Shown piece after piece: positions 917 to 33,190 of a stretch of DNA of 34,420 nt; position 1 is the first letter of the stretch; every line of letters starts with the position of its first letter. The DNA comes from Pyrinomonadaceae bacterium (GTDB lineage Bacteria; Acidobacteriota; Blastocatellia; Pyrinomonadales; Pyrinomonadaceae), in assembly GCA_035275045.1 (NCBI GenBank), contig DATENN010000308.1, positions 1 to 34,420 on the forward strand, given 5' to 3'. The notes under the pieces were generated by a model. It saw only the letters and a list, made by a program, of their open reading frames with translations, had not been told where the DNA came from and ran no database searches. A program made the translations under genes and the position numbers.

Positions 917-3871
917 CTAACGAGCTTCCGTCTCAATCTCTTCCAGCGCCGTTACGCAACGTTCGCAAACCGTTGGATAGCGCGCTGACTCGCCAACTAA
1001 CGTCGAGTAGTTCCAACAGCGTTCACACTTCGCGCCTTCAGCAGGTAAAACTTTAACCAGAACGCCATCGACCGCTTCACCCGACCGGACCAAATCAACC
1101 TGGGACACGATAAAGAGATAACGCAGTTCTTCCCGATACTTCGCCAGCAGATCGTAACTTCGGCCGGAGGCTGCAACTTCCACGCGCGCTTCCAACGAGC
1201 TGCCAATGATCTTCGCCACGCGCGCTTCTTCGAGGGATTGCAAGACGTCTTCGCGAATTTCGAACAAGCGGCGCCAGTTGCCAAGTATCTCTTCATCCGG
1301 CATACCAGTCGCTTCGGGAAAGACGCTCATGTGAACCGACAGCGGGCGTTCGCTGTCCGGCGGCAAGTTCTCCCAAATCTCATCCGCTGTGAAAGCGAGC
1401 AGTGGCGCAAGCAAGCGCGCCAGCGTGTCTGCGATCTTAAGCAACACTGTTTGCGCAGCCCGCCGTGAAGGATGGCGCGGCGCAAAGGTGTAGAGACGGT
1501 CCTTCAAAATATCAAAGTACCGCGCCGATAACGTTACCGTGCAGAAGCGATAAAGCGCGTGGTACGCAGTGTGGAATTCATAAATCTCATAAGCAGCGCG
1601 CACGGTGCGCAGTATGTTGTCTAATTCTGCAAGTGCCCAACGATCGATATCGGGCAGTTGAGATTCATCGATCGCGTCGCGTCGCTGGTCGAACCCTGAC
1701 AGATTGCCCAACGCAAAACGCGCAGTGTTGCGCAGCTTGCGATACCCGTCCGTGACACGTTGCAGAATCTCTTTTGATGAACGCATGTCATCAAAATAAT
1801 TCGACGAGGCACACCACAGGCGCAGAATGTCCGCGCCTGATTCTTTGATGACTTCGTCAGGGGGCACCGCGTTCCCGCCCGACTTGTGCATCTCCTTGCC
1901 CTGCGCATCGACAGTCCAACCGTGAGTGATGACAGCTTTATAAGGAGCGCGGTCGTGCGCCGCCAGGCCAACCATCAACGACGAGTTGAACCAGCCGCGA
2001 AATTGATCGCCGCCTTCAAGGTAGACATCGGCCGGCCAACGTAACTCTTCTCGATTTTCCAAAACCGCGATGGATGACGAGCCGCTGTCAAACCAAACAT
2101 CGAGAATGTCGGTTTCCTTGGTCCATTCCGCAGCGCCGCACCCGCCGCAGGTAAAACCTTCGGGCAACAATTCGCGGGCTTCTTTGGTGTACCAGGCATC
2201 GGCGGACTCTCGTTCAAAGATATCGGCGACATGATTGATCACCGCTGGTTCGGCAACGGCTTCGCTGCACTGTGCGCAGTAGAACACGGGAATCGACACA
2301 CCCCACACGCGTTGCCGCGAAACGCACCAGTCCGGGCGCCCTTTCAACATGTTGCGCATACGTACTTCGCCCCATGACGGATACCACTTCACACGCTCGA
2401 TCTCGCGCAGTGCGGCGGCACGCAGCGTCGTCTCGCCCTCGGAAAAATTTTCAGTAAAATTGCTGCGGTCGCGTCCATCCTCATCTGTTTCGGTCTCCAC
2501 CACAGCGGCGACGGCCTGGTCCATGGAAATGAACCACTGCGGAGTCGCACGAAAGATGACAGGATTCTTGCAACGCCAGCAGTGTGGATAGCGATGGCTG
2601 TATGGCTCAGTAAAGAGCAAAACGCTACGCTCTCGCATGAATTCAACAATCTTCGGGTTCGCTTCAAACACGCTTTGGCCGGCAAAATATTCCACCTCGG
2701 GTGTGAAGTGACCCGCGTTATCGACCGGACAATAAATATCCAGACCATAGCGCTTGCCGATCACAAAATCGTCGTGACCGTGACCAGGGGCCGTATGTAC
2801 ACAGCCGGTGCCGGCTTTGCTTGAGTTCGATTTTTCGCGCGCGTCTTTTACATCCAGTTCCGTTTCCGCATCAGCCTCGCCACCCAGCGTTACGTGTTCA
2901 CCAACCATCAGCAGCGAGGGCCGGTCCAGCCACGCGTGTCGGCATTCAAGGCGATCCAGTTTTGCCCCGGGAAAGCGAGCGAGAACCTTCGTATCTCTCG
3001 ACGACAGCTCGCACTTGTCGATCACCGCGTCGAGTAATTCAGCGGCAACGATGTACACCTCCTCGCCGTTTTCGAACGCGACGTACTGGTAATCGGGATG
3101 AACACTGATGCCAAGATTTGCCGGCAGCGTCCACGGTGTAGTGGTCCATATGAGAACGAAAACCTGACGGCCGGCAAGCGCCGGATCGATAAGGACTGGA
3201 TCGCTCGCGAGGGGAAACTTGACGTAGACAGACGGACTCGTGTGTTGATGATATTCAACTTCCGCTTCGGCGAGCGCCGTTTGATCGTGAATACACCAGT
3301 AAACCGGACGCGCGCCCTTGTAAACATAGCCGCGCTCAACGAAGCGACCAAACAAACGTGCGGTTTCTGCTTCGTAGTGATTCGACATTGTTAGATAGGG
3401 ATTGTCCCACTGGCCCAAAATCCCGAGCCGCTGAAAGTCGCGCGTTTGCCTCTTCAACGCTTGCGCGGCGTGCTCGCGACAGGCGCGGCGGATCGCCACG
3501 GCAGGCATGTTTGCTTTTTTTGCTCCAAGCTTGCGGTCGACGTACAACTCGATCGGCAAGCCATGGCAGTCGTAACCGGGCACGTAAGGCGCGTCGTAAC
3601 CCATCATGCTGCGCGATTTCACCACGAAGTCTTTCAGAATCTTATTCATCGCCGTGCCAAGATGAATGTCCGCATTCGCGTAGGGTGGTCCATCGTGCAG
3701 GATGAACTTCTCTTTTCCGGCGCGCGTCTTGCGAATCTCCTCATAAAGATTCGCCTCTGACCATTTTTTCAGACGCGCGGGTTCGCTCTGCGCCAGATTC
3801 GCTTTTTGCGAAAATCCGGTTTTTGGCAGGTTGATGGTCTTCTTAAGATCGAGCGGTGTTTCGGTGGACAT
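917..3871 (-). CDS. ileS: isoleucine--tRNA ligase
   Basis: 984-aa ORF with a HIGH-type motif ([12 protein letters not shown]), a KMSKS-type motif (KEMHKSGGN) and C-terminal CxxC zinc-knuckle pairs (CERCWNY..CERC). ATG at 3869..3871. Confidence 0.95.
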
Positions 3872-3952
3872 ATTTCGTGTTTGTCAGAATTGCCAATACT
3901 AACAGCAGAGTTGTTGAGTCATCAAAACAGGCGCCGAGCGCACTTCATAAAG

Positions 3953-3996
3953 TAAAACCCGAACCAACTTCCGCGTGGATGATGGTCCGGGTTTGA
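3953..3996 (-). terminator. candidate intrinsic terminator after the DUF948 gene
   Basis: On the minus strand the sequence reads aaacccggacc-(18 nt)-ggttcgggtttt followed by actttat. This is a GC-rich stem plus a U-run about 20 nt after the stop at 4016. Confidence 0.6.
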
Positions 3997-4015
3997 ATTA
4001 GCAATTTCGCTGCAA

Positions 4016-4582
4016 TCAACCGATGAACAACTCATCCTCTCCGTAGGTTTGGTTGATGGGCTTAGGCAGCGGCGCTACGAGCACTTCGAGGCCGCGGCGA
4101 AAGCCCGCCATAATTGCGGCTATTTCCCGCGCCGGTTCGACGACGCGCCGTTGAATAAACTCAGTCGTAGTAGCAATTTGATCGTGGGTACGATCGATGG
4201 TGCGGCTGACAAGTTCAACTTTATCGCGCGCTTCGACCGCGGTTTCGCTGACCAGTTCTTTCAACTCGCCCACTTCACCTTTGATGATAGCCAGCGATTC
4301 CGACAGGTTCATGGTCGCAGTTGAAAGATGGCCGGACACCGCGTTGAACTGTTCGGCAATCTGCTTACCCTGGACCGCGATCTGCTTACCTTGTTCGCTG
4401 ATCACAGTAACTCGATCGATCAGCGGTTCCAACCTTTGCTCTAACCGCGTTACCGAACGCACGGCGCGGTTGACGAAGACGGCAATTGCAATCATGGCAA
4501 CCGCGATGATGATAAAAGACAAAGCAATTACCACCATCACCCAGAACATGGGATCGTTAATGTTCATTTGCAAGGCAAGCAT
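4016..4582 (-). CDS. DUF948-like membrane-anchored coiled-coil protein
   Basis: It has an N-terminal TM helix (FWVMVVIALSFIIIAVAMIAIAVFV) followed by a long helical region. It pairs with a YtxH-like gene, as is common. The family assignment is from memory of DUF948 architecture. Confidence 0.6.
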   Translation of the reverse strand: MLALQMNINDPMFWVMVVIALSFIIIAVAMIAIAVFVNRAVRSVTRLEQRLEPLIDRVTVISEQGKQIAVQGKQIAEQFNAVSGHLSTATMNLSESLAIIKGEVGELKELVSETAVEARDKVELVSRTIDRTHDQIATTTEFIQRRVVEPAREIAAIMAGFRRGLEVLVAPLPKPINQTYGEDELFIG

Positions 4583-4661: not shown

Positions 4662-5129
4662 CTAGTTCGCTTTTTCAGTGTACTTCGGCGCGGCGTCCAA
4701 TCTTCCTGACATTTCCGTTTTGCGTTTTTCTTCCTGATACGCCTTCTTGCCTGCGTCGATCGCGGCGGCGACGGTGCTCGTTTGGCGCGAAGCACTATCG
4801 CGGGCAGTTTGCGCTACCTCGCTGACCTTGCTTGAGGCCTGGGTGTACAAATCAGACGCGCGCTCACTGGCCTGCGAGTAAAGCTCCGAAGCTCGTTCAC
4901 GCCCGGCGTCATAATACTCGCCGGCTCGTTCACCTAATTGCTGAGCAGCTTCGCGCGACTTGTCAATTCCTTTGCGTGTAGCGTCCGCGATGTCGCCGCG
5001 AAGTTCCTGACCCGACTTAGGCGCGAACAGCAGCGCGATAACTGCGCCGATTCCGCCACCGATCAAAAGGTACGTCAGTCGCGTCGAGACGCTGTCGCCA
5101 GAGTCACGTCGATAATCATCGTTTGCCAT
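4662..5129 (-). CDS. YtxH domain-containing protein
   Basis: It carries the hallmark LIGGGIGAVIALLFAPKSGQELRGDI followed by a helical A/E/R/S-rich region. The ATG at 5127..5129 is preferred because AAGGA lies 7 nt upstream. The track ORF extends to 5249. Confidence 0.8.
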   Translation of the reverse strand: MANDDYRRDSGDSVSTRLTYLLIGGGIGAVIALLFAPKSGQELRGDIADATRKGIDKSREAAQQLGERAGEYYDAGRERASELYSQASERASDLYTQASSKVSEVAQTARDSASRQTSTVAAAIDAGKKAYQEEKRKTEMSGRLDAAPKYTEKAN

Positions 5130-5205
5130 AATTAGATCCTTTCTGGGAAACCATGGCCTTCGAATCGGGCCATTTTGCGTTATTAATTGGAGTTTTCTGA
5201 ACCGG

Positions 5206-5235
5206 ACTATAGCAAACGTTTGCGAAACGGCGCAA
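5206..5235 (-). promoter_or_regulatory. candidate sigma-70 promoter with an embedded palindrome upstream of the ytxH-like gene
   Basis: The minus strand reads TTGCGC-(18 nt)-TATAGT. The spacer contains the perfect 12-bp palindrome GCAAACGTTTGC (5212..5223), which abuts the -10 element. Confidence 0.35.
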
Positions 5236-5279
5236 GAAATGTGGGCCATTCAGCGGCAGGGAGGCGGCTCCTCACTGAT

Positions 5280-7400
5280 CTACTCGCTGTTTCCGCCGCC
5301 GTTGTACTGATCCAGCTTTCGGTAAAGCGTCTTGCGCCCAATGCCCAACGCTTTGGCCGCGTGCGTTTTATCGCCCTGGGTGTAATCGAGGGTCGCCTCG
5401 ATCGCTTGCCGTTCAATCTCGTCCATCGAAGAAGGCACGGTTACTTCAAACGTAGTCGTTCTTCCTTCACTAGCGGCCCGGGCGCGCTCCACCTTGATTC
5501 GATCCTGTTCCTGCAACACGATCTTGCTTATTGCTTCCGGCAAGTCTTCGAGTTCGATCTGGCGTCCGGACGCGATGATCACTGCGCGCTCGATCGCGTT
5601 TTCCAATTCCCGCACATTGCCGGGCCAGTCGTAAGTGATCAGAGCCTGCAGTGCATCTTTGGAAATTCCTGAAATAAAACGACCCGTCTTTTGTTTGTAA
5701 TGCTCGAGGAAGTGTATGACGAGCGGATGAATGTCCTGCGCGCGTTCACGCAACGGTGGCAAAGCGATCGGGAACACAGACAAGCGATAAAAAAGATCGC
5801 GCCGGAAAGTTCCATCCTCGATGGCTCGCTCGAGATCGACATTTGAGGCCGCGATGATGCGCACATCGGCTTTGACGACTTCACTGCCGCCAACCCGAGT
5901 GAACTCGCCATCCTGCAACACGCGCAACAAACGCACCTGTGCCGACAAACTCATCTCGCCGACTTCATCGAGAAAGAGAGTGCCGCCGTTTGCTTCTTCA
6001 AAACGGCCCTGCCGCCGTGCCCGCGCGTCAGTGAATGCGCCCTTCTCGTGTCCAAAGAGTTCCGACTCAAGCAAAGTCTCGGGAATCGCGCCGCAGTTCA
6101 ATTTTACATAGGGTTGATCTTCGCGGCCCGAGTTGTAATGAATAAGATTCGCCAGCAATTCCTTCCCGGTACCCGACTCTCCCTGAATCAGAACGGTCGT
6201 CTGCGTATCAGCGACACTCAGCGCCAGCTCGATGGCTCGGCGAATCGCAGGCGTCTGGCCGATCAGACGATCTTCGCCATAGCGTTCATGCAGTGCATCG
6301 CGCAGGTGCATCACTTCGGCGGAAAGTTGATCGCGTTCGAGCGCGGTCCCGATTTGATCGGCGATGCCTTCGACGAGTGCCACTTCGTGATCCTGAAACC
6401 CCTGACGCGCATCGCTCCACACTAAGCCAAGCAAACCGAAGGTGTGACCGGCGACGCGTACCGGAGCCACCAGTGCCGCGCGTCCACCAAGGATCGAATT
6501 GAACATCAAACGAAACGGAAACGGGAGATCACTGTCGAGTAATCGCAGCGTTTTGCCTTCAGCCAAAACTTCAATAGCCGCCGGAAACTCGGTTAAATCG
6601 AGCGACTGCGCGTGTTCTTCAATTAGACCTTGGACTGAATCTGTGCTCGCATGCGGCGCCGCTTTGAAAGCCACCAGGCTAATCTTTCCACCCTTCCGAT
6701 CGAGCACGCCGAGTGCGGAATAGTCCGCGCCGACCAGGGTGATCGCGCGTTCCAGCACCAGGGACGATACCTCGCGAAAATCAGAACGCGCATTAATCGC
6801 ATTCGCGATCTCGAGCAACGCTCGCTTGGTTTCAGCTTCACGCTCCTTGTCGGAATACAGCCGCGTGTACTGATAGCCCACACCGATTTGTCGCGCGATC
6901 GATTCCAAAAACGCGACTTCATCATCAAGCCACACGCGTAACGATCGCGTGGTATGCATGCCCACCAGGCCAAGTACGTCATCGCCGAGTACAACCGGCA
7001 CCACCAACAGCGACCGTGTGCCCAAACCTTTTGCCAGCATGCGCACCTTCTGATCCAGGTCAGGCGCCGAGGTGTCGTCAAGGCGGATCGGCCGCGTCAG
7101 ATCGACGTTCTCAGCTAGTTGTCGCATGTCGATGGGGATGGCAGTTCCGAGGCTCGACGGAACGTCGTCCGAAGCGCGCCATTCGTGACTAATTCGCAGC
7201 TCGCTGGGCGAAGTTAACTGGATAACGTCGCAACGATCGACATTCATCATCCGTCCAAGTTCGGAGACGATCACGGTTAGAAAACGATCGAGATTAATGG
7301 CGGAAGGCAGCGTCAACGCGAGGCGATTAATAATGCCTTCGCGCGCCTCGTGCATTTTGATCTTACGCTCGAGCGAGAGAGATTGGGCGGTGTCTGACAT
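5280..7400 (-). CDS. sigma-54-dependent transcriptional activator (GAF-GAF-AAA+-Fis HTH)
   Basis: 706 aa. The N-terminal half is GAF-like. The AAA+ core carries Walker [30 protein letters not shown] and an RVGG-type segment. The C-terminus is a Fis-type HTH ([16 protein letters not shown]). Confidence 0.9.
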
Positions 7401-13584: not shown

Positions 13585-13750
13585 CATAGAATTCAGGAAA
13601 CGGAATACAGAAGTCAGGAGGCAGAATTCAGAAGTCAGAATTAGAATTCAGAATTATTCAGAATACGAAGACTGTAGCGCCTGATTGTAAAAACGGCTCC
13701 GAACGGATCGGATTTCTGACCGCGGATCGCTGACTTCTGACTTCTGCTTT
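13585..13750. repeat. asymmetric inverted array of heptad repeats (locus B)
   Basis: The long arm (13588..13672) is built of cagaagt/cagaatt/caggagg units and includes several GAATTC sites. The short opposing arm (13710..13748) reads ttctgac..cgctgac ttctgac ttctgc. It lies between the DUF2270 stop and the hutH start. Confidence 0.75.
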
Positions 13751-15434: not shown

Positions 15435-15524
<90 letters not shown>

Positions 15525-15530
15525 TTAAAT

Positions 15531-15606
15531 GCAGATGTCAGAGATCAGATATCAGAGGCCAGCAAAGACGGTTTCTGATCTCTGACATCTGACATCTGAC
15601 ATCTGT
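15531..15606. repeat. heptad-repeat hairpin between the two tRNA-Ser genes (locus C)
   Basis: cagatgtcagagatcaga (15532..15549) is the exact reverse complement of tctgatctctgacatctg (15574..15591), an 18-bp perfect stem. The right arm continues as a tctgaca run of 3 units. Confidence 0.9.
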
Positions 15607-15611
15607 TGTTC

Positions 15612-15701
15612 GGAGAGGTGCAGGAGTGGTTGAACTGGCAGCACTGGAAATGCTGTGAACGGGAAACCGTTCCGTGGGTTCGAATCCCACCCTCTCCGCC
15701 A
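15612..15701 (+). tRNA. tRNA-Ser (anticodon GGA)
   Basis: It has the same acceptor and T-arm as the first tRNA-Ser. The anticodon stem is cagca/tgctg with loop cuGGAaa. It has a long variable arm and an encoded CCA. Confidence 0.93.
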
Positions 15702-19861: not shown

Positions 19862-19950
19862 CAGTGCTGAGTGCTGAGTGCTGAGTACTGAGTCAAATAC
19901 TCAGACTCAAAGTTCTTACTCGGCACTCAGCACTCAGCACTCAGCACTTT
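19862..19950. repeat. heptad-repeat hairpin (TGCTGAG/CTCAGCA type) between ffs and dnaX (locus G)
   Basis: agtgctgagtgctgagtgctgagt (19863..19886) is the exact reverse complement of actcagcactcagcactcagcact (19925..19948), a 24-bp perfect stem. It is followed by tt and then by the dnaX ATG 7 nt later. Confidence 0.9.
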
Positions 19951-19955
19951 TCCGT

Positions 19956-21722
19956 ATGGCCTACCAGGTAATCGCGCGCAAATGGCGCCCGCAAAGTTTT
20001 GACGAAGTAACCGGCCAGGAACCGATCACGCGCACACTGCGCAATGCGATCGAGCACCAGCGGCTGCATCACGCTTATCTGTTTTCCGGCGCGCGCGGCG
20101 TCGGCAAAACGACGACTGCGCGTCTGCTTGCCAAGGCATTGAATTGCCACAAGTCGCCGGTACCGACTGCAACTCCCTGCCGCACTGACGATCCGACCGC
20201 CTGTCCGTCGTGCCGCGAAATAACTGAGAGCCGTTCCATCGACGTACAGGAAATCGACGCTGCCTCGAATACCGGCGTCGGCAACGTGCGCGACTCGATT
20301 ATTGAAACAGTGGGCTTTGCGCCGGCGCGCGACCGCTACAAAGTTTTCATCATCGACGAAGTGCACATGCTTTCGACACCCGCCTTCAACGCGTTGTTGA
20401 AGACCATTGAAGAGCCGCCCGACCGTGTGGTCTTTATCATGGCGACCACGGAAAAGCAGAAGGTCCCGGAAACCATTCTTTCACGCTGCCAGCAGTTTGA
20501 ATTTCGCACCATTGCCACTGCAAAGGTTTTTGAGCGCCTGAAACTAATCGCCAAAGCGGAAAACATTTCCGTAACTGACGAAGCGCTTCGCGAGATTGCG
20601 CGTTCGGGCGAAGGTTCGATGCGCGATGCGCAATCAAACTTTGATCAGGTGATCAGTTTTGCCGGCACCGATATCAAGAAAGAAGATATTGAACTCGCGC
20701 TAGGCATTGCCGGCGCCGACATTCTGATTCGGGTGGTCAATGGCATCGCGAACAATCAACCGGCCGAAGCACTCGCCGTCGTCGATGATGTCGTGATGCG
20801 CGGTCATGATCTGCGTAACTTCTGTCGCGACCTCCTCGCGCATTTTCGCGATCTGTTAGTAGCCAAAGTATCCGGCAGCGATGAATTGTTGGAAGCAGCG
20901 ATTTGCGATAGCGCGGAATTGAAGCGGCAGGCGGCATTGTTTTCCGAAAGTGACCTGGTGCGCTTTTTCAATTCGCTGGCTGAGACCGAAAATCTTCTGC
21001 GCACCGCTTCCCAGCCGCGATACCTGGTGGAGATCGCGCTCGTTAAATTGATGGAGATGCGGCGGCTGGAGCCGCTCAGCCAATTACTCGATCGCGTGAA
21101 CGCTCTAGAAAGTGTGTTGCGCGGTGGCGAACCGCTCGCGACCGGAACAAGGGCATCGAAGGTGGAAACAAATGTAGCTCCTGCCACGAAATCCCCGACA
21201 CTTGCTGCCGCAACCTATGCGAGCGGAGCCGCAGCGGGAGCAGCGCCCGCGATGGAGACAAGATCAGCAGCAGTAGTAGGCAGCAGCGGTCGGCAGGAGG
21301 ACACATTTGCCGTCGGCGGTCCGCAGACCGCGGTCGATCAGATCAAAGCCGCATTAGAGCAACGGCGAAAAATGTTTTTGGTTACTGCACTCGAGGGCGC
21401 GAGCAAAGCGGCAATTGAAGGCAACGAACTTTCAGTTGAGTTTGAACCTGCCAATCGGCACCTGCGCGACACGTTGTCGAAGAGCGACAACGTAAAAATC
21501 CTGCGAGAAGTTTGTCGAGAGATCACCGGGAGCGATCTTGGGGTGCGGTTTGTGATTGCTGATAGCCAGGCAGCAGCAGATGCGCCGCCTTCAAAGGAAG
21601 AGCTCGAACGCCGCGATCAACAAGCGTTGCGCTCGCGCGCGGAAAAAGATCCGGTCATCAGGCAGGCTTTGAAAACCTTTCGCGGCGAGATTATCGATGT
21701 GAAAAGAATCGAACGCGAATAA
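19956..21722 (+). CDS. dnaX: DNA polymerase III subunit gamma/tau
   Basis: MAYQVIARKWRPQSFDEVTGQE is the canonical DnaX N-terminus. Other motifs are Walker A GARGVGKTT, a zinc module (CxxC..CPSC), IIDEVHML and SRCQQFEF. The start is set at the ATG at 19956. The track start at 19878 lies inside the repeat. Confidence 0.93.
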   Translation: MAYQVIARKWRPQSFDEVTGQEPITRTLRNAIEHQRLHHAYLFSGARGVGKTTTARLLAKALNCHKSPVPTATPCRTDDPTACPSCREITESRSIDVQEIDAASNTGVGNVRDSIIETVGFAPARDRYKVFIIDEVHMLSTPAFNALLKTIEEPPDRVVFIMATTEKQKVPETILSRCQQFEFRTIATAKVFERLKLIAKAENISVTDEALREIARSGEGSMRDAQSNFDQVISFAGTDIKKEDIELALGIAGADILIRVVNGIANNQPAEALAVVDDVVMRGHDLRNFCRDLLAHFRDLLVAKVSGSDELLEAAICDSAELKRQAALFSESDLVRFFNSLAETENLLRTASQPRYLVEIALVKLMEMRRLEPLSQLLDRVNALESVLRGGEPLATGTRASKVETNVAPATKSPTLAAATYASGAAAGAAPAMETRSAAVVGSSGRQEDTFAVGGPQTAVDQIKAALEQRRKMFLVTALEGASKAAIEGNELSVEFEPANRHLRDTLSKSDNVKILREVCREITGSDLGVRFVIADSQAAADAPPSKEELERRDQQALRSRAEKDPVIRQALKTFRGEIIDVKRIERE

Positions 21723-21790
21723 TAGCTTCACGATGCGGCTTCTGCTTCACAAAAAGCCGTGCCTAATTTTTGATAATCTGATAAAAACAA

Positions 21791-21823
21791 AGACCGGCAC
21801 GCTATGGAAGCCGATGCCGGTCT
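21791..21823 (-). terminator. candidate intrinsic terminator (minus strand) in the convergent dnaX / regulator spacer
   Basis: agaccggca (21791..21799) and tgccggtct (21815..21823) form a 9-bp stem. On the minus strand it is followed by ttgttttta. Two more hairpins lie between it and the regulator stop: ccgccacg/cgtggcgg at 21828..21856 and ggaggtgcac/gtgcacctcc at 21896..21922. Confidence 0.55.
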
Positions 21824-21927
21824 TGTCCCGCCACGCTCACCCTTTTGACGTGGCGGATCGGGACACTTTGGTTGATCAGAGCCAAAGCGTCCACCGGAGG
21901 TGCACGCCGCTAGTGCACCTCCAGCTC

Positions 21928-23436
21928 CTAGTTATCGTGAATGTCTTGCTCGATCTCCGCTGGCCTGCCTTTAGTCGCGCGTTTATGGATGGGTGAACGG
22001 GCTTTTAATAAGTCCTGGTGGCGCGAACCGATCACATAAGCGAGTCCCTGATAAGTCATACCCAACAATGAAGCCGCATGCGTGACGCTGCCATTCGCCT
22101 GGGCCAACGCCTGGCGCAACAGGCCTGCTTCAAACTTCAAAACCTCAAGCGGAAAACTGCACGACGCATTGAAGACTGTTTCTGTTGCCGCTTCCGGTTT
22201 CAGTTCGCCGCGAATGCCGGCGAAGACTTTTCGCGCGGCATTATTGAGACGCAGCAGAATGTCCTGACTTTGCGACTTGGCCAGCCATTCGCTCGCTCGA
22301 TCGTACGCAGCGTACAGCGTGTCGGTCGGCAGGTCATCCAACTCCTCAATCAAGGTGAGCGCGGCGAGGCCGGCTTTGTTGAGAGCGCCAACCTGATGGC
22401 CCACCTCAATCGCTTTTTGGAAAGTGAATTGGGCGCGCTGGGTTTGCTTAAGACGAGCAATGGCGACGCCGTGGGTGATGAGTGCATCGGCCAGCAGACA
22501 CTGGTGCCCACTTTTTTCAAGCGCGCGCACCGCGCTGCGCGCCACCACCTCGGCTTCTGCGAATTTCTTTTCTGCGATTAGGACCTGCGCGCGCGTATCG
22601 TCGATCTGAGCAACGCCAACTTTGTCCTTCACGCGGATTCTCAACCGACGAGCCTGCTCAAGATATTTGTGGGCTTCGTCGAAACGCTTAAATTCACGAA
22701 GGAGATTGGCAATATTGTTCTTGATATCCGCGCGAAAAACGCTGTTCCGCGCCGTCTTAAAATGCTGATCAGCCTTTTCATAATTTTCAAAAATTTGCGC
22801 GAAATCTTCAGGACGTTTGTCGTTAAGAGTTAGCTCACGAATTACCATTGCCAATTGACTATGATAGGCACCCCGTATTGCATGATTGGTGACCTTCTTA
22901 AAGAGAAACGCGTTGTCTTTTAGGATTCTCAGGGCTTCCCCATAGCGGGCTGCGGACCATTCGACGACAGCTAAGCCTAATAGCCCGTATGCTCGCGTGT
23001 TTCCTTCGGTTGTAAGCTTAGTTAAAGCTTCCGAAAACAGAATGCGGGATTCATCTAGCTTGCCTTCGCGCCAGTAACAGTAAGCTAGTTCAACTTGGGC
23101 TGCTGCTACCTTTCTAACGTCTTTTATGGATTCGTGAAAAGCGATGCTTTCGCAAATGAGGTTTTTTGCTAGTTCATTAGAAGAGTCTCTCTTGTCTTTA
23201 CTTCCAATCCATCTTGTCAAGATTCCTGCGCAAAGTAACACTTCAGCAGCAACTGATGCGTGTAAGCCCTCTGTTATCGGCCGTTGTCCGGGATTCTTCC
23301 AAAATCGTCCCATGACGCTTCGTGCGCCCGCGTAATCACCTTGGTCCTTCATTTCCAATGCCCGTTGACAACGCAGCAATGCTTCTTCGTTGGCGCTTAG
23401 ATGTGTTGCGTTGAGTTTTCGTGAGGTTATCCTCAT
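21928..23436 (-). CDS. TPR-like helical-repeat protein with a C-terminal Fis-type helix-turn-helix (putative transcriptional regulator)
   Basis: 502 aa. Repeated amphipathic helix pairs have TPR-like spacing (AAQVELAYCYWREGKLDESRILFSEAL, ANLLREFKRFDEAHKYLEQARRL, TRAQVLIAEKKFAEAEVVARSAV). The C-terminal LLRQALAQANGSVTHAASLLGMTYQGLAYVI resembles the NtrC/Fis HTH_8. There is no AAA+ or receiver domain. Confidence 0.6.
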   Translation of the reverse strand: MRITSRKLNATHLSANEEALLRCQRALEMKDQGDYAGARSVMGRFWKNPGQRPITEGLHASVAAEVLLCAGILTRWIGSKDKRDSSNELAKNLICESIAFHESIKDVRKVAAAQVELAYCYWREGKLDESRILFSEALTKLTTEGNTRAYGLLGLAVVEWSAARYGEALRILKDNAFLFKKVTNHAIRGAYHSQLAMVIRELTLNDKRPEDFAQIFENYEKADQHFKTARNSVFRADIKNNIANLLREFKRFDEAHKYLEQARRLRIRVKDKVGVAQIDDTRAQVLIAEKKFAEAEVVARSAVRALEKSGHQCLLADALITHGVAIARLKQTQRAQFTFQKAIEVGHQVGALNKAGLAALTLIEELDDLPTDTLYAAYDRASEWLAKSQSQDILLRLNNAARKVFAGIRGELKPEAATETVFNASCSFPLEVLKFEAGLLRQALAQANGSVTHAASLLGMTYQGLAYVIGSRHQDLLKARSPIHKRATKGRPAEIEQDIHDN

Positions 23437-23590
23437 GAGAATCAGACCCTTCTACGTGAGTGTAAGAGAGCTTGCTACCTACGGAGGCGGATATTAGTGC
23501 GCCTCACCCTCACCTTGCAAGAACTTCCTGAAGTTGGTCTATTCTATTTTATGTAAGAAGTCTTGCATCCCACCTTGAAGGAGAAACAAG

Positions 23591-23797
23591 ATGAAACGAT
23601 TACTAATAAGTGCGGTCGCGGTGTGCGCTCTCTCGATGATGACCAAGGCGGGTGACATTCCGTCCGTCGGCGCGCCTCAACCACAGCCGACGGTCGCGTC
23701 AACAACGCCTGGAGAAATTCCATCCGTACCCCGAACCGACCAATTAACAGATAGCTTAATTCTCGCGCTTCTATCTGGTTTGGATCTGGTGCTCTAA
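23591..23797 (+). CDS. small secreted peptide (68 aa) with a duplicated G(D/E)IPSV motif
   Basis: A strong SD (AAGGAG) lies 8 nt upstream of the ATG. It has a Sec-type signal peptide MKRLLISAVAVCALSMMTKA. The mature part is GDIPSVGAPQPQPTVASTTPGEIPSVPRTDQLTDSLILALLSGLDLVL. It is divergent from the TPR-HTH gene. Confidence 0.6.
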   Translation: MKRLLISAVAVCALSMMTKAGDIPSVGAPQPQPTVASTTPGEIPSVPRTDQLTDSLILALLSGLDLVL

Positions 23798-24168
23798 ACG
23801 AGAACGCATCGGTGATGTTGCTGTATGCGAGTGGTGTGGGCTCCGCTGAGAAATTTAAGCTCGCAAAACTCACCCTAACATTTCCGATTCGCTCTTAACG
23901 GGGTCGCGCACAACTCAACCTCAATTAGCAGCCTCACGGCGGCAGGGATTTGTGTGCTTAACGGTAACCCAACGAGCGAAACTCAGGCGTGCTTGAGCAG
24001 CATTAGGATTGAAGTCGGTGGCCGTTCCTAATTCCAGCGAACCGAAGTGGCTGGAGCTTATATGGATACGTTTCAAAACCTGGTACGCGGCACCTGTATC
24101 TCGCCAAGTCTTTTTGGTGAACAAAATCGCGCCGCGCGTCGTAATGAACTGCGCTCGGAGGTTAAATC

Positions 24169-24378
24169 ATGCGCGATCCATTCACGGCAGGCCTGTTAAG
24201 TTTCATCATTCCCGGCGTGGGCCAACTGTACAACGGCCGCATCCTGGCCGGCATTTTCTGGCTCATTATCACGCCCGGCTTTTGGATCGGCTCTGGCGGC
24301 ACGCTCGGCTGGATTTGTCACGTCATCGCTGCTTACACGGCATACTCGTTCGCGAAATACCACCCGGTGCGGGCCTAG
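24169..24378 (+). CDS. small membrane protein (TM2-like PGxGQxYNG motif)
   Basis: 69 aa with GGAGG 8 nt upstream of the ATG, the motif LLSFIIPGVGQLYNGR and two TM helices. Confidence 0.6.
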   Translation: MRDPFTAGLLSFIIPGVGQLYNGRILAGIFWLIITPGFWIGSGGTLGWICHVIAAYTAYSFAKYHPVRA

Positions 24379-24438
24379 GATGTAGCGCAAACTGACGCTT
24401 GCGGATACGTCTGCGCGCTCTACGCGCGCCCATTAGCT

Positions 24439-24507
24439 GCGAAACTTACACAGACTAAAGTCTGTGCCACGCGGCGAAACTTACACAGACTAAAGTCTGT
24501 GCCACGC
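24439..24507. repeat. perfect tandem direct repeat (2 x 34 bp, 35-bp period), each unit carrying the ACAGACTAAAGTCTGT palindrome
   Basis: gcgaaacttacacagactaaagtctgtgccacgc occurs at 24439..24472 and again at 24474..24507, about 90 nt upstream of the zwf ATG. Confidence 0.9.
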
Positions 24508-24598
24508 TCGTGCTATCCTTGCTTTCATCGTCACCAACGACACACAAACAGCGGCCGAACAAACGGGCGAGCCGGCAACAAATCCCTTGCGCGCGGGC

Positions 24599-26095
24599 AT
24601 GCGTCTCGAGCGTGTAGCGCCGTCGTGTGTTGTCGTAATCTTTGGCGCCACCGGAGACCTGACGCGCCGCAAACTTCTGCCCGCGCTCTATCGTTTAACG
24701 CAACAACAATTGATACCAGCGGAGTTCGCGATCCTGGGCACCGCGCGGCAGCCGCTCAGCGACGACGAGTTTCGCGCGCAAATGCAACAGGCGATTCAGG
24801 AGTTTGCCAGCGAAGATCAGTTTGACGAAAAAGCCTGGCAAAGTTTTGCCAAGCGCCTTTTCTATTTGCCCGGAGAGTTCGCGGACGCCGGGCTCTATCA
24901 AAAGATAAAAACGAAACTGGGCGAGATCGACAAAGATTGCAGCACGCGCGGCAATCATTTGTTCTATCTCGCTACTGCGCCGGAATTTTTCGGCGTCGTG
25001 GCCACGAAATTAGGCGAAGCGAAGCTCGCAAAACCGCAAGACGATGCCTGGACGCGCATCATCGTTGAAAAACCGTTCGGGCACGATCTCGCGAGCGCGC
25101 AAAAACTGAATCAGGAGCTGGCTACGGTTTTTGAAGAGAAGCAGATCTATCGCATCGATCACTATCTCGGGAAAGAGACGGTGCAGAACCTGCTGGTATT
25201 TCGTTTTGCGAACAGCATTTTTGAGCCGCTTTGGAACCGGCAGTACATCGATCACATTCAGATCACGAATGCAGAAGCGATCGGCGTCGAGGGACGCGGC
25301 GCGTATTACGAAAAGGCCGGCGCGCTGCGCGATATGATCCAGAACCACGTGTTTCAGGTGACCTCCTTGATTGCGATGGAGCCGCCCGCTTCTTTATCTG
25401 CGAACGGTGTGCGCGATGAAAAGATCAAGGCAATGCAGTCGGTGCGGCCGTTGCCGGCAGAGAAAATCGATAAGTTTGCTGTGCGCGGCCAGTATGGACC
25501 AGGAACAGTTTTAGGCGACACGGTTCCGGGTTACCGTCAGGAACCCGGCGTCGATCCGAATTCTTCGACGGCAACGTTTGCCGCCCTCAAACTTCAGTTC
25601 GACAACTGGCGCTGGGCGGGCGTGCCTTTCTATCTGCGCTCAGGCAAGCGTTTGCAAAAGCACATCACTGAAATCGCGATCGAGTTCAAGGGCGTGCCGC
25701 ATCGGCTGTTCACTGATGCCGATGCGCCACTGCAGCGCAACGTGCTCGTAATTCGCATTCAGCCCAACGAGGGCATCACGCTGCGGTTCGGCGCGAAGCT
25801 GCCCGGACAGGCGATGCGCATTCGTTCGGTCAACATGGATTTTCGTTATGGCTCATCTTTTGGCGTGAAGCCGCCAGAGGCATATGAGCGTTTGTTGCTC
25901 GATTGCATGCTCGGGGATTCGACGCTGTACGCGCGCCGCGATATGGTCGAGCGCGGTTGGGAAATCGTGGCACCGATCATCGATGCATGGGAAAAACCCG
26001 CGACTGATTTTCCGAATTACGAGGCCGGCTCGTGGGGACCATCGGCGGCCGCCGAATTATTAAGTCGGGACGGCAGAAAGTGGCGAAGGCTTTGA
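24599..26095 (+). CDS. zwf: glucose-6-phosphate dehydrogenase
   Basis: It carries the NADP motif GATGDLTRRKLLPALY, the active-site motif RIDHYLGKE and the usual C-terminal WGP...A..LL. The ATG at 24599 is preferred over the TTG at 24587. Confidence 0.95.
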   Translation: MRLERVAPSCVVVIFGATGDLTRRKLLPALYRLTQQQLIPAEFAILGTARQPLSDDEFRAQMQQAIQEFASEDQFDEKAWQSFAKRLFYLPGEFADAGLYQKIKTKLGEIDKDCSTRGNHLFYLATAPEFFGVVATKLGEAKLAKPQDDAWTRIIVEKPFGHDLASAQKLNQELATVFEEKQIYRIDHYLGKETVQNLLVFRFANSIFEPLWNRQYIDHIQITNAEAIGVEGRGAYYEKAGALRDMIQNHVFQVTSLIAMEPPASLSANGVRDEKIKAMQSVRPLPAEKIDKFAVRGQYGPGTVLGDTVPGYRQEPGVDPNSSTATFAALKLQFDNWRWAGVPFYLRSGKRLQKHITEIAIEFKGVPHRLFTDADAPLQRNVLVIRIQPNEGITLRFGAKLPGQAMRIRSVNMDFRYGSSFGVKPPEAYERLLLDCMLGDSTLYARRDMVERGWEIVAPIIDAWEKPATDFPNYEAGSWGPSAAAELLSRDGRKWRRL

Positions 26096-26227
26096 AGTCA
26101 GAGGTCAGATGTCGGATGTCAGATTTCAGAGACAGAGAACAGAGATCCAGAGATCAGAAGTCAGACGTCAAGATCAGAGCATGTGTTATATCTGAATCTG
26201 GCCTCTGACCTCTGACATCTGACATCC
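26094..26227. repeat. heptad-repeat inverted array filling the zwf-opcA spacer (locus E)
   Basis: The long left arm is built of gtcagag/gtcagat/gtcggat/cagagac/cagagat units (26096..26180). The short right arm reads tctgaat ctggcc tctgacc tctgaca tctgaca (26191..26226). About 18-25 bp can pair, for example ggatgtcagat.tcagag. Confidence 0.85.
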
Positions 26228-30220: not shown

Positions 30221-33190
30221 TTACGGACTCGGCGGGCTGTCGCGATTAAGCGGCGTCGGCGCGCCGGCAGTCACCGGCACCTGGCAGTTCTGCGATGAAG
30301 TGCCAGTTGAACTGGTAAAGAGGAAATCATTTTCATTCGCGTTCGTGTCCTGCGGATTACCGGCAGTGCCTTTGCGAACAAAACTGACCTGTTCGGCCGG
30401 CGCTCCCGAACAAGTTGCCAGTCCATTGCCCTCGCGGAAGATCGAGCCCGCCGGAAGCGAAGTGAAACCAACTGCATCAATGACCGCAACCGCGATCAAG
30501 TTGTTTTGGTTGCTGGTGCGGAACAAGGCGAAGCCGCCGTTGTCGGCATTGTCAGGCGTCCACATCGCGTCGCCATCCGCCGTGCGTACCGGATTGCCCG
30601 TCGGATTGTTCGACAAGCTATAAGGGTTAATACCGGATGCGCGTACTTCATTGGTCATCAAGTAATGACCATGCGCCGGTATCACTATGCCGTTCGGAAT
30701 AATCGACAAAGGCGTGACAACTCCGGAAGGAGACGAATAGGCAAGCAGCCAGCCGTCAGAACCGTCAGTCGTAGTCACGGTGATTGCGTTGTTCGTATTG
30801 TTAACGAGCTCCACGAATTCATCGCGCGTACCCGCTGGGCCGCGCATGCGGAACTCGCTGATTATCAGTCCGCCGTTGACGGAGTATGGTGCGGTCGTAC
30901 TAGGCGTAACTAAGGTCCACCACGTCGACCAAAGACCAGCGAATTGTCCCGGGCCAAAGATTTCTCGTTGATCGAGGGCGTACTCCTGAATGGTCCAAAA
31001 GTCGTTATCGTTAAGCGGATCTACCATCACTGCGCTGTAGTCGCCCCAGCGAGTGGTGAATGGGGTACCACCGCCGATGTTGTAGTTGCCCATGCCTTCG
31101 CGGGAAACCATTGAGTCGCGCATGTAATTCGCGGGATCGCTGCCGGAGCGGAATGAGTACGCCGCTTTTGCCAACGTACCCGGCGATACGCGTGAGTAAC
31201 CGATAAGCACGTCGTTCGCTGCGTTCACGTTTATATTTGGAAACGCGTAGAAATCACCAACGGGCGTGCAGCCGGCACGGCTTCCCCCAGTGCCGTTATG
31301 ACAATTATCTGCACGCGGATCGGCAATGATATTACGTTGTAACGGAGAAGTTCCGGTACTGGTGTTCGTCACCAGTGGATCCAGTTGCCACCATTGAACG
31401 GCAGCTCTGATGTCCGGATTTCCCGAGCCAAAACCGTTGCCGGCCGGTGTTTGAAGCCGCGCGAGTTCAATCGTGTGAGTGGTCCATAAGGTTCCGTTTC
31501 TTAGCACCACATTCTGGATGCGGGCATCATTCGAGGTAATTCTCGTACCCGAAACCAACATGGCGTTTTGCTGGCGTTGAGGCATGTAACCGCCCGAGCC
31601 AGTAGGATTGATCGTAGCGGTGCCGCGCCAACCGTAAGGTGACTGCGGGAACTGGTAACCGACGGTCAGGATTGGAGCGACTTGCGTGCCGCTGATCCTT
31701 GACATGCGAAGCTGGCCAAACTGATCGTCCCAATCCTCAACCAGGTATTCGTCGTTGGTGGTGTTGTCCTGCTCAATCGCCGGAGCATAGGTAAAGCCGC
31801 AGCCCAGCGCTTGTGGCTGCGAGGCCGGCGGCAGATTCAAACAACCTGTCGAGAAGCTGTCCTCGAATGTCGATACCACGCCCAGCGTACCGGCGTAGGC
31901 AGTCGTTTTGTTGATGACATAGATCGATGGCCCTTGATAGCCGCCCTTGTTGCCATAACCAAAGCGGTTGATCGAGATCACGATCCAATTCTTGTTGAAG
32001 CCGATACTCGGATAATCAGCCCAATTACCCCCCGAGGTTGTCGCCGTGGCATCAACGTCAATCGCGTAACGGTTCCACGTACCCAAAGGATTGCCCGTTT
32101 GCGATGTGGCTATCAAGGTCGCGGATGTCGGAGCGAAAGAATTGGCCTGAGTGACCATGATGAAGCGGTCATTGAACCGATCGTAAAGAATCTTCGGATC
32201 GAACGTGGAAGGGTTCGCCAGACCATTCGGTAACGCGGCCCAAAATGCATTCAAGCTAACGGTGCTGAGCGTCACTCCATTACGATCCTGAATGAGCACC
32301 TTTTCATTGGTCGTCGTGACGACGTGGTTCAAACCGACCGCGCCCATGGTGTCGGGCGGAACGGAGCCGAGTGAAAGATTGTCCGATTTAAATGTGCGCA
32401 CCATGGATGGCGAGGGCACTCCCGCGATCGGCGAGTCAAGCGACGCCTTTCGTTTCTTTGCTTCTTTCAGCAGCGCGCCCTGACCGATTGCTTCGCGGCC
32501 TTCTGCCGGTGCGGGTTGCGGCGCGTCTATCTCAGCCAGTTCAGCTTCCGCACTGGTCTTCGAAGAACTCTTGCTTTTGCTCAACGCCGCCATATTGACG
32601 GTGCCGAGGTCGGTCACCTCGCGCTCCTTGGAAGGAATGTCCTTCACCGTCGGCGCTTGCAGCGCGCCGGCATTTCCGAGGGCGGACGGTGCGGTTGGCT
32701 GGTTCGCCCAGATGCCATAAGGCATCACGACAGATGGACGACTGGTGGCCCGATCTTCCGCTTCCTTGCGTTCGGCTTCCTTCTTCTCTTTTTCTTCAGC
32801 CTTTTTCTTCGCAAGCTTTTCGGCGGCTTCCTGCTTTGCTATTTCCGCGGCTTGTTTCTTGGCCAGGGCCTCGGCTTCTTTTTGTGCCTGCTCCTGGGCC
32901 TTCAAGGCGGCGGCTGCTTCGGCGTCCTCTGCAGATGGCTTCTTCTTGCGATTCTTTCGCGTCTTTTTCTTTTGCTTAGTCTGCGCAACCTTGCTTACTG
33001 CCGGGGCCTGCGCCGAGACGGGCTGTACAAGCGCGAGGCACTGAATGACTAACGCCAAACAAACTGCGTAGGTCAGCAAGTGCGCTGCGGCCTTTGTGGC
33101 CTTGTGTTTGAAACCAGTCGAAACTGAACTGGCGACTGATTGGCTGCTTGCAAGAAGCAGAGAAAAACGAAATGAGGGAATCTTCTTCAT
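30221..33190 (-). CDS. large secreted protein: signal-anchor, K/E/A-rich low-complexity linker, uncharacterised propeller-like core, C-terminal lamin-tail domain (LTD)
   Basis: AAGGAG SD. The hydrophobic segment is LTYAVCLALVIQCLALVQPVSA, and the K/E/A-rich linker spans about aa 70-160. The core carries PPDTMGAVGLNHVV...FDPKILYDRFNDRFIMV...WADYPSIGFNKNW...RWGDYSAVMVDP. The C-terminal LIISEFRMRGPAGTRDEFVELVNNTNNAITV is typical of LTD. Confidence 0.8.
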   Translation of the reverse strand: MKKIPSFRFSLLLASSQSVASSVSTGFKHKATKAAAHLLTYAVCLALVIQCLALVQPVSAQAPAVSKVAQTKQKKKTRKNRKKKPSAEDAEAAAALKAQEQAQKEAEALAKKQAAEIAKQEAAEKLAKKKAEEKEKKEAERKEAEDRATSRPSVVMPYGIWANQPTAPSALGNAGALQAPTVKDIPSKEREVTDLGTVNMAALSKSKSSSKTSAEAELAEIDAPQPAPAEGREAIGQGALLKEAKKRKASLDSPIAGVPSPSMVRTFKSDNLSLGSVPPDTMGAVGLNHVVTTTNEKVLIQDRNGVTLSTVSLNAFWAALPNGLANPSTFDPKILYDRFNDRFIMVTQANSFAPTSATLIATSQTGNPLGTWNRYAIDVDATATTSGGNWADYPSIGFNKNWIVISINRFGYGNKGGYQGPSIYVINKTTAYAGTLGVVSTFEDSFSTGCLNLPPASQPQALGCGFTYAPAIEQDNTTNDEYLVEDWDDQFGQLRMSRISGTQVAPILTVGYQFPQSPYGWRGTATINPTGSGGYMPQRQQNAMLVSGTRITSNDARIQNVVLRNGTLWTTHTIELARLQTPAGNGFGSGNPDIRAAVQWWQLDPLVTNTSTGTSPLQRNIIADPRADNCHNGTGGSRAGCTPVGDFYAFPNINVNAANDVLIGYSRVSPGTLAKAAYSFRSGSDPANYMRDSMVSREGMGNYNIGGGTPFTTRWGDYSAVMVDPLNDNDFWTIQEYALDQREIFGPGQFAGLWSTWWTLVTPSTTAPYSVNGGLIISEFRMRGPAGTRDEFVELVNNTNNAITVTTTDGSDGWLLAYSSPSGVVTPLSIIPNGIVIPAHGHYLMTNEVRASGINPYSLSNNPTGNPVRTADGDAMWTPDNADNGGFALFRTSNQNNLIAVAVIDAVGFTSLPAGSIFREGNGLATCSGAPAEQVSFVRKGTAGNPQDTNANENDFLFTSSTGTSSQNCQVPVTAGAPTPLNRDSPPSP

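Follow-up and report, generated by a model that had tools for sequence, protein, structure and literature searches.

Small peptides that signal through cytoplasmic tetratricopeptide-repeat (TPR) receptors are regarded as characteristic of Bacillota and their phages. In the RRNPP(A) systems (Rap-Phr, NprR-NprX, PlcR-PapR, PrgX and AimR-AimP), a cytoplasmic TPR receptor is encoded next to a small pro-peptide gene, the pairs have expanded into paralogues with divergent peptides, and the output domains vary among the receptors. The operational signature applied by RRNPP_detector includes a pro-peptide of 10-100 amino acids (aa), a Sec signal sequence, a receptor of 250-500 aa, TPRs in that receptor, and adjacency of the two genes (-50 to 191 bp) (PMC10075063). 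Pro-peptides with repeated units are known in RRNPP systems (PMC9765709; PMC10075063), and the large surveys of these systems covered Gram-positive bacteria and viruses only (PMC10075063, PMC9765709). The present work concerns two divergent genes in a contig of a Pyrinomonadaceae bacterium from the phylum Acidobacteriota (DATENN010000308.1, positions 1 to 34,420; this whole stretch of 34,420 nucleotides is called the window). One of them encodes a 502-aa regulator, made of a TPR module and a C-terminal helix-turn-helix (HTH), and the other a 68-aa pro-peptide with predicted export. Our favoured reading, to which we give somewhat better than an even chance, is that the two genes form a self-contained peptide-signalling cassette that works by peptide sensing.

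Set against the RRNPP signature, the window pair has a pro-peptide of 68 aa and a receptor of 502 aa (two over the default), encoded 154 bp apart in divergent orientation. All five operational features appear to be essentially present apart from the 502 versus 500 aa, the signal sequence being judged by its pattern. As in RRNPP(A), a cytoplasmic TPR protein adjoins the gene of a small pro-peptide, here one with predicted export, the cassettes have multiplied with divergent peptides, and the outputs vary among receptors. However, the likeness stops at the level of the layout. The HTH of RRNPP(A) receptors is of XRE type and N-terminal (or, in Rap, a 3-helix bundle), whereas that of the window regulator is of Fis type and C-terminal, an inverted order that a preliminary description of this DNA had already pointed out. 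The TPR module is also larger here (~400 aa), the peptides are longer (50-90 aa across the family) and carry a conserved amphipathic C-terminal tail, and the host is a diderm acidobacterium. Neither RNPP_C nor HTH_3 was matched by the regulator in Pfam. In a Foldseek search with its solenoid the best match was LGN/Pins (E 3e-7), while the Rap-pheromone and RapF structures came only at ranks 49-50 (E 5e-5). The preliminary description had seen an RRNPP-like layout in this pair; the analogy of layout holds, but a specific homology to RRNPP receptors does not. The best reading is that the cassette is analogous to RRNPP or Rgg/SHP systems, and not detectably homologous to them.

In Rgg/SHP and PrgX/PrgQ, as in the window, the genes for the receptor and for a small peptide diverge from a short, conserved control region. 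SHP precursors have a conserved hydrophobic C-terminal end preceded by acidic residues, and so does the window peptide. Nevertheless, Rgg and PrgX receptors are homologous to RRNPP, unlike the regulator described here, and it is the variable repeated motif of the peptide, not its tail, that may carry specificity in our case. SHP and PrgQ precursors are moreover only ~20-35 aa long and involve PptAB/Eep, not a classical Sec signal peptide and a long linker (PMC10075063).

The pairing of the two genes is conserved among close relatives of the regulator. A scan of GTDB with one genome per species confirmed 108 loci, and the analysis was continued with the best 80; the named ones are all from Acidobacteriota metagenome-assembled genomes. 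Pairing was counted in the 70 of these 80 loci that have at least 380 bp of upstream flank, by tblastn and an iterated hidden Markov model (HMM) over all open reading frames (ORFs). A homologue of the peptide was found opposite the regulator in 66 of the 70 loci (HMM E 1e-12 to 1e-32), always on the other strand and almost always directly upstream. One of the four loci without a match (L080) holds what looks by eye like a frameshifted remnant of the peptide gene, and two loci with weak or displaced matches (L054, L071) give the same impression. The cassette is also multiplied within genomes: among the best 80 loci, six copies are found in MFD09212.bin.1.129, five in BPF2-06-08_bin_1, and four loci (five genes) in MFD04212.bin.1.211. 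Each paralogous cassette has a distinct peptide. In one locus (L049) two cassettes stand in tandem (2131-4483 and 4767-6491), each with its own divergent peptide gene; their regulators are a 644-aa protein with an extra C-terminus, of a length like that of relatives in which a receiver domain (REC) follows the HTH, and a 505-aa TPR-HTH protein. A second ORF of 228-271 aa, on the same strand as the regulator and after it, is seen in L039 (6522-7337), L064 (2823-3509), L065 (6526-7212) and L066 (6526-7218), and has a weak similarity to the regulator profile (scores 120-150).

Further information was obtained from the TPR module alone. A profile search over 1.84 billion cluster representatives yielded, at E<1e-30, 550 clusters (50% identity), and at E<1e-10 the family exceeds 4000 proteins; the named relatives are all Pyrinomonadaceae, Blastocatellia or Acidobacteriota. 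In this family the ~410-aa TPR module stands at the N-terminus, joined to outputs of at least six different architectures, and serves as a portable input domain. Among the best 149 clusters, 88 are TPR-HTH, 29 are TPR-Sigma54 AAA+ (with or without HTH_8), eight are TPR-HTH-REC, two are TPR-HisKA-HATPase-REC and one is TPR-HTH-GNAT. A TPR-TIR fusion is also among the relatives, and in one of them (P0244) only an AAA_lid remnant is found.

The peptide gene travels with this module. For distant relatives (42-56% identity), we examined the fetched contigs of the variants and 80 loci from a metagenome scan with sigma-54-type TPR modules (3 sequences), counting only loci whose upstream flank measures at least 350 bp. 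Where a divergent signal-peptide ORF is found in these distant loci, its median distance is 154 bp. Such an ORF is present in 53 of 64 loci of the metagenome set, and 44 of those 53 peptides match the peptide HMM at E<1e-3. As a control, 11 of 187 other long genes (6%) have such an ORF upstream by the same heuristic. Sorted by architecture, the peptide ORF accompanies TPR-HTH-REC in 27/29 loci, TPR-REC in 3/3, distant TPR-HTH in 19/27, the sigma-54 type (TPR-Sigma54AAA-HTH) in 5/5, the kinase type (TPR-HisKA-HATPase-REC) in 1/2, the GNAT type (TPR-HTH-GNAT) in 1/1, the TPR-only type in 1/1 and the TIR type in 0/1. Since the pairing persists when the outputs are changed and the spacers are unrelated, the association follows the sensor domain, and not the DNA-binding domain or the promoter. 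Of the arguments for a functional coupling of the peptide to the TPR module itself, this one is the strongest. The preliminary description had regarded the link between the two genes as purely positional, and had named a small ORF conserved beside the regulator homologues as the check on it. Such an ORF is conserved, and with 66/70 and 53/64 loci against 6% of control genes the link has become a strong comparative association. We propose to define the family by a ~410-aa N-terminal TPR module, a divergent signal-peptide ORF ~100-250 bp upstream and an amphipathic tail in its product, a definition that the window pair fits.

The same data bear on a simpler view, according to which the exported peptide is a mere output (surface-active, antimicrobial or related to the envelope) of a regulator whose TPR module senses a protein partner or a metabolite. 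Divergent regulator-target pairs are common, and palindromes lie over both start regions of the window pair, as detailed below. An amphipathic C-terminal helix behind a Pro-rich linker would also suit a membrane-active peptide. However, a mere target should track the DNA-binding part of its regulator. Instead, TPR modules keep the peptide gene even with a sigma-54 activator as output, or in one case a histidine kinase without a DNA-binding domain, and the pairing survives completely different spacer DNA. Repeats of a motif within each peptide, specific to each paralogue, would also be left unexplained. We consider it unlikely that the peptide is only a regulated product.

The peptide family has a common plan in the alignments. 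All members have a signal peptide ending in A-x-A and followed by G. The window product starts with MKR, a 14-residue hydrophobic core and TKA, then GD, so that the predicted mature part has 48 aa; its signal peptide is suggested by this succession of n-, h- and c-regions and by its conservation in ~100 homologues. The motif at the cleavage site is G-[DE]-[IVLM]-x-[ST]-x-[GDP] in the window clade. Between this motif and the tail there are Pro/Ser/Thr-rich linkers and an acidic patch, and the peptides terminate in an amphipathic tail of 12-15 residues, of ALSALLSVLGLV type or, in distant clades, ALNLLQSVLSLF. The longer tail consensus is ..AEQxSDxALSALLxxLGL in the window family and ..ALNLLQSVLSLF in distant clades. 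The signal peptide and the C-terminal tail are the best-conserved parts across clades. The first motif often recurs later in the same peptide, yet it varies between peptides: own-motif recurrence (at least 5/6 residues) was seen in 23% of 94 peptides, versus 0.9% when they were compared against peptides with a different first motif. Examples are DGVISTG x5 (beside the kinase), GQIETT x3, GTVNSPPCA x2, GDVLTPPC x2 and the GDIPSVG / GEIPSVP of the window. We favour the repeated motif as the specificity-bearing product, small enough in principle for passage through porins. In that case the conserved tail would serve all members for handling or recognition; the reverse assignment, with the tail as the product, seems less likely to us.

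A profile built from 40 peptides finds at least 686 database proteins, all of them "hypothetical" and without a Pfam domain, and neither Pfam nor NCBIfam contains a family or model for the peptide. An identity as Phr_nterm/PhrK was considered and rejected; the matches are insignificant (E 0.04) and stem from the signal peptide.

It is hardly conceivable that the small ORF is spurious and that only the conserved spacer, as DNA or RNA, is functional. The spacer is indeed strongly conserved as DNA, and three divergent loci (L067, L069, L070) keep it without a recognisable peptide. Against this, frame, start, Shine-Dalgarno sequence, signal peptide and tail of the ORF are conserved in more than 100 loci, and its length variation (50-81 aa) is all in frame. 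The gene is under purifying selection, with a median dN/dS of 0.34 in eight orthologues. The peptide also persists where the spacer sequence is unrelated, and an Rfam search of positions 21700-24600 gave no match. The ORF, its strong ribosome-binding site and its divergent position across the 154-bp spacer stand as they were first described.

The layout of signal peptide, low-complexity Pro/Ser/Thr region and hydrophobic C-terminus could suggest a small surface or membrane protein with a C-terminal anchor signal, similar to PEP-CTERM, IPTL-CTERM or GlyGly-CTERM, in which case its linkage to the regulator would reflect envelope biology. Some members do end in one or two basic residues (..LIGR, ..LIRR, ..IVAK), and motifs containing IP[ST] recall IPTL. 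However, the basic cluster is absent from most members, and the tail has only ~12-15 residues, contains N/Q/S and is amphipathic. When 40 members were searched, none matched an NCBIfam C-terminal sorting domain at E up to 10, nor one in Pfam, and no gene for a sortase, exosortase or rhombosortase is a conserved neighbour. A sorting signal is thus a very unlikely explanation of the tail.

The regulator itself is a TPR protein with a Fis-type HTH and without receiver, AAA+ or kinase domain, as had been read from the letters alone and as Pfam and AlphaFold2 agree. TPR families (TPR_12, E 7.9e-13) and HTH_8 (residues 435-467, E 5.8e-7, 29.6 bits versus a gathering cutoff of 22) are its sole matches in Pfam. 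The AlphaFold2 (AF2) model, built on 55 homologues (pLDDT 84.4, pTM 0.74), consists of an uninterrupted all-alpha solenoid at residues 15-410 (helices H15-32 to H391-410), a disordered linker at 412-428 and a small four-helix C-terminal bundle at 428-479. The model gives the long TPR solenoid and C-terminal HTH bundle expected in the preliminary description, which had proposed this fold check. More than 2000 homologues are found in the database. The best 120 are ~500 aa long and 63-81% identical, and those named by taxon are all Pyrinomonadaceae, Blastocatellia or Acidobacteriota. In the family alignment the recognition region of the HTH is near-invariant (..SYQGLAYVIG..), with invariant columns at Y462, Q463, L465, A466 and Y467. 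Searched by profile against the PDB, the regulator matched nothing but kinesin light chain TPRs and, marginally, the HTH of FleQ.

Its C-terminal HTH_8 resembles that of NtrC-family enhancer-binding proteins, and some close relatives of its TPR module are true members of that family (TPR-Sigma54_activat-AAA_lid-HTH_8; P0261, P0306). The window protein differs from them by the absence of AAA+, and its sensor is a TPR solenoid and not a REC, PAS, GAF or V4R domain. As it has no AAA+, sigma-54 activation by ATP hydrolysis is not possible. Because sigma-54 relatives and the AAA_lid remnant are found among its TPR-module kin, the 502-aa protein could be an enhancer-binding protein that lost its ATPase, if the change went in that direction.

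The top Foldseek matches of the solenoid are TPR structures solved with bound peptides, which is also relevant to another view of the ligand. The TPR module could bind the unexported precursor, most likely by its C-terminal tail, and export would then free or change the regulator, which would report on export or production. TPR class II chaperones of type III secretion systems (IpgC/MxiE, SycD/LcrH) are cytoplasmic TPR proteins whose availability is set by a secreted partner and feeds transcription, and regulation of the IpgC/MxiE type is a precedent for such a mechanism. Those chaperones differ from the window regulator in being small (~150 aa) and separate from the transcription factor, and their partners are type III and not Sec substrates. 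Binding of the precursor would make the crossing of two membranes unnecessary, TPR domains often bind C-terminal or helical peptides, and within the mature peptide no part is better conserved between distant clades than the tail. However, Sec substrates with a classical signal leave the cytoplasm quickly, and the information sensed in this way is hard to name. No role is given to the variable repeated motif at the cleavage site, and the expansion to many paralogues with different peptides is hard to explain. For these reasons we regard sensing of the precursor as quite improbable.

The two genes of the favoured cassette are separated by a control region that is conserved far above its surroundings (sites are listed in Table 1). 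Three blocks stay at least 75-90% invariant over 52 distinct cassettes, with a mean difference of ~39% between their regulators. Nearly all positions of Site A are at least 90% conserved, as is Site B, and the core of Site C is at least 75-90% conserved. Sites A, B and C each occur once in the window, where 0.01-0.2 occurrences are expected by chance (0.01 for A and C). For 51 of 54 cassettes the two start codons lie 150-167 bp from each other. Searching with a spacer profile (nhmmer) gave 77 matches in 76 of 81 sources, and 75 of the 77 are at regulator 5' ends.

Inside Site B lies the hexamer TTGCAA (23515-23520), 18 bp from the putative -10 of the regulator promoter and 19 bp from the conserved GAATAGAGCAAC block, which reads TATTCT on the peptide strand. 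Site A is found just 3' of the putative peptide -10, 22 nt before the ATG. Site C has the same half-sites and lies between the putative -10 and the Shine-Dalgarno sequence of the regulator. This arrangement suggests two back-to-back promoters sharing TTGCAA as their -35, with one operator (A or C) lying just 3' of each -10; TTGCAA could be a shared -35, an operator, or both. The near-invariant bases, together with the invariant recognition helix, favour a protein-binding site in the spacer. Since the sites are nearly invariant, they give no covariation signal for or against an RNA hairpin. A generic scan for sigma-70 promoters and terminators found nothing useful in the spacer and did not call the putative regulator -10. 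A sigma-54 promoter was also considered, and no -24/-12 element is apparent by eye in the window spacer. Spacers of the distant clades examined bear no relation to this DNA, and most lack CTTGCAAG. Consequently, the operator model is limited to the HTH-only Pyrinomonadaceae clade.

We hypothesize that the pro-peptide is exported by Sec and cut after Ala20. Further processing is probable and would release either the short motif, of which there are two copies (GDIPSVG / GEIPSVP), or the C-terminal amphipathic tail. This product would be sensed by the ~410-aa cytoplasmic TPR solenoid, presumably after re-uptake. Ligand binding would then shift the occupancy, by the Fis-type HTH, of three related palindromes in the spacer, with A over the start region of the peptide gene, B at the shared TTGCAA and C in the leader of the regulator. 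The outcome would be a feedback loop coupling the expression of peptide and receptor, and paralogous cassettes with different peptides could act as parallel channels. We infer these steps, from export, processing and re-import to peptide-TPR binding, the direction of the regulation and any targets beyond the cassette.

Several observations weigh against this mechanism. The peptide ORF is missing from 11 of the 64 distant loci, and no peptide gene is visible upstream of a 1549-aa TPR hybrid histidine kinase (P0245; L165/L166) or of the TPR-TIR protein (P0256; L172), which has 574 aa and adjoins an integrase. No sites of a regulon beyond the cassette were found in the DNA sampled, which would also be expected of a regulator with the peptide as its mere target. 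The operators are almost identical among paralogues; this implies cross-talk at the DNA level, which is hard to square with fully independent channels. A mirror-tree comparison gave weak Spearman coefficients for the peptide distances, of 0.19 with the TPR module, -0.07 with the HTH and 0.16 with the spacer; the coefficients are too low, and the saturation of these distances is too strong, for the comparison to be usable. In a diderm host the signal must also cross the outer membrane twice. An Opp-type importer abuts the peptide gene in one sigma-54-type cassette (L170 1-2171, L171 2-2052), where OppC_N/BPD_transp_1 and two ABC_tran + oligo_HPY ATPases are encoded. In the other 172 of 174 sources no importer was found beside the cassette, and this lack of linkage again suits a peptide that is only an output.

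In the genome, the window cassette is an old resident rather than a recent acquisition, as judged from conserved synteny: in the orthologous set it is flanked by dnaX (33 loci) and by zwf/opcA (13 loci). The paralogous cassettes are found in unrelated genomic contexts. The preliminary description had taken a patch of low GC as a hint of accessory origin. This is contradicted by the synteny, and the local dip is mild (0.47-0.50 versus ~0.54), with comparable dips elsewhere in the window. The only recurrent neighbours are dnaX, zwf and opcA, and neither a processing enzyme nor a transporter is conserved beside the cassette.

Downstream of the peptide gene there is a 69-aa ORF (24169-24378, + strand) with a weak similarity to TM2/DUF5683 (E 1e-4, below the Pfam cutoff). 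A similar ORF is found in ~6 orthologous loci, and it belongs to the local synteny and not to the cassette generally. Between this ORF and zwf, a perfect 35-bp direct repeat occurs in two copies (GCGAAACTTACACAGACTAAAGTCTGTGCCACGCG; 24439-24507). The palindrome ACAGACT-AA-AGTCTGT is part of each copy, and the repeat may serve in the regulation of zwf. The window also contains intergenic tandem arrays of heptanucleotides (161-321, 13588-13656, 15581-15605, 19863-19948 and 26097-26179). They are often paired in inverted orientation and could form long hairpins, as with AGAGGTC and CTGACCT at 161-321. The AGTGCTG and ACTCAGC arrays at 19863-19948 lie just 5' of the likely true start of dnaX. They are reminiscent of the short, tandemly repeated heptamers of cyanobacteria. 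A TCTGACA heptamer array also separates two tRNA-Ser genes (15435-15701; anticodons CGA and GGA), whose distance is 87 bp. An AT skew of -0.51 is seen at 32501-33000, within a 989-aa ORF (30221-33190, - strand).

Table 1. Features of the divergent gene pair and its control region, in window coordinates.
Feature	Position	Strand	Basis
Gene for the 502-aa cytoplasmic regulator (TPR module, linker, Fis-type HTH)	21928..23436	-	ORF, Pfam, homologues, AF2
TPR-like solenoid, residues 15-410, 20 helices; proposed input (ligand/partner-binding) module	22207..23394	-	AF2, Foldseek
C-terminal Fis-type helix-turn-helix, residues 428-479	22000..22155	-	Pfam HTH_8, AF2
Divergent control region, 154 bp	23437..23590		spacer lengths, consensus, nhmmer profile
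Site C: GCAAGCTCTCTTACACTCAC (regulator orientation), imperfect palindrome TGCAAG-N-TCTTACA; proposed operator	23456..23475	-	conservation
TAATAT, putative -10 of the regulator promoter, 18 bp from TTGCAA	23491..23496	-	conserved ACTAATAT block
Site B: CCTTGCAAGAAC, holding the perfect palindrome CTTGCAAG	23513..23524		conservation
TATTCT, putative weak -10 of the peptide promoter	23540..23545	+	conserved block GAATAGAGCAAC, other strand
Site A: ATGTAAGAAGTCTTGCAT, 18-bp near-palindrome ATGyAAGA-NN-TCTTrCAT; proposed main operator	23551..23568		conservation
Shine-Dalgarno AGGAG, 7 nt 5' of the peptide-gene ATG	23579..23583	+	sequence
Gene for the 68-aa pro-peptide, predicted exported	23591..23797	+	ORF; family HMM E 2.2e-24
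Sec-type signal peptide (predicted), residues 1-20 (MKRLLISAVAVCALSMMTKA, then G)	23591..23650	+	conserved n-/h-/c-region pattern
Motif copy 1, GDIPSVG, at the predicted cleavage site	23651..23671	+	alignment, own-motif recurrence
Motif copy 2, GEIPSVP	23711..23731	+	alignment, own-motif recurrence
Acidic patch and C-terminal amphipathic/hydrophobic tail (DQLTDSLILALLSGLDLVL)	23738..23794	+	alignments

The searchable literature contains no account that we could find of RRNPP or peptide quorum sensing in Acidobacteria, nor of an equivalent of this cassette, in agreement with what had been supposed at the outset. It is tempting to propose, as a tentative and wider reading that we place a little short of an even chance, that Pyrinomonadaceae and Blastocatellia hold a large system independent of RRNPP. 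In it, a modular TPR domain would read the products of a cognate multi-copy pro-peptide, through many channels per genome and with interchangeable outputs (Fis-type HTH, sigma-54 activator, receiver, histidine kinase or acetyltransferase). With it, a family of cytoplasmic peptide-pheromone receptors would be described in diderms for the first time. The system is directly testable, as the predicted ligands are short synthetic peptides and the operator is an 18-bp palindrome. Cultured relatives exist in Pyrinomonas, Blastocatella and Chloracidobacterium. It could also yield orthogonal peptide-receptor-operator parts.

In summary, our results point to a family analogous but unrelated to the TPR receptors of Bacillota, multiplied within the genomes of one of the most abundant soil phyla. 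If our reading is true, thousands of proteins annotated as "TPR repeat protein" or "hypothetical protein" would gain a function, and peptide-based signalling, between cells or autocrine, would have had at least two origins and would be widespread among soil communities.

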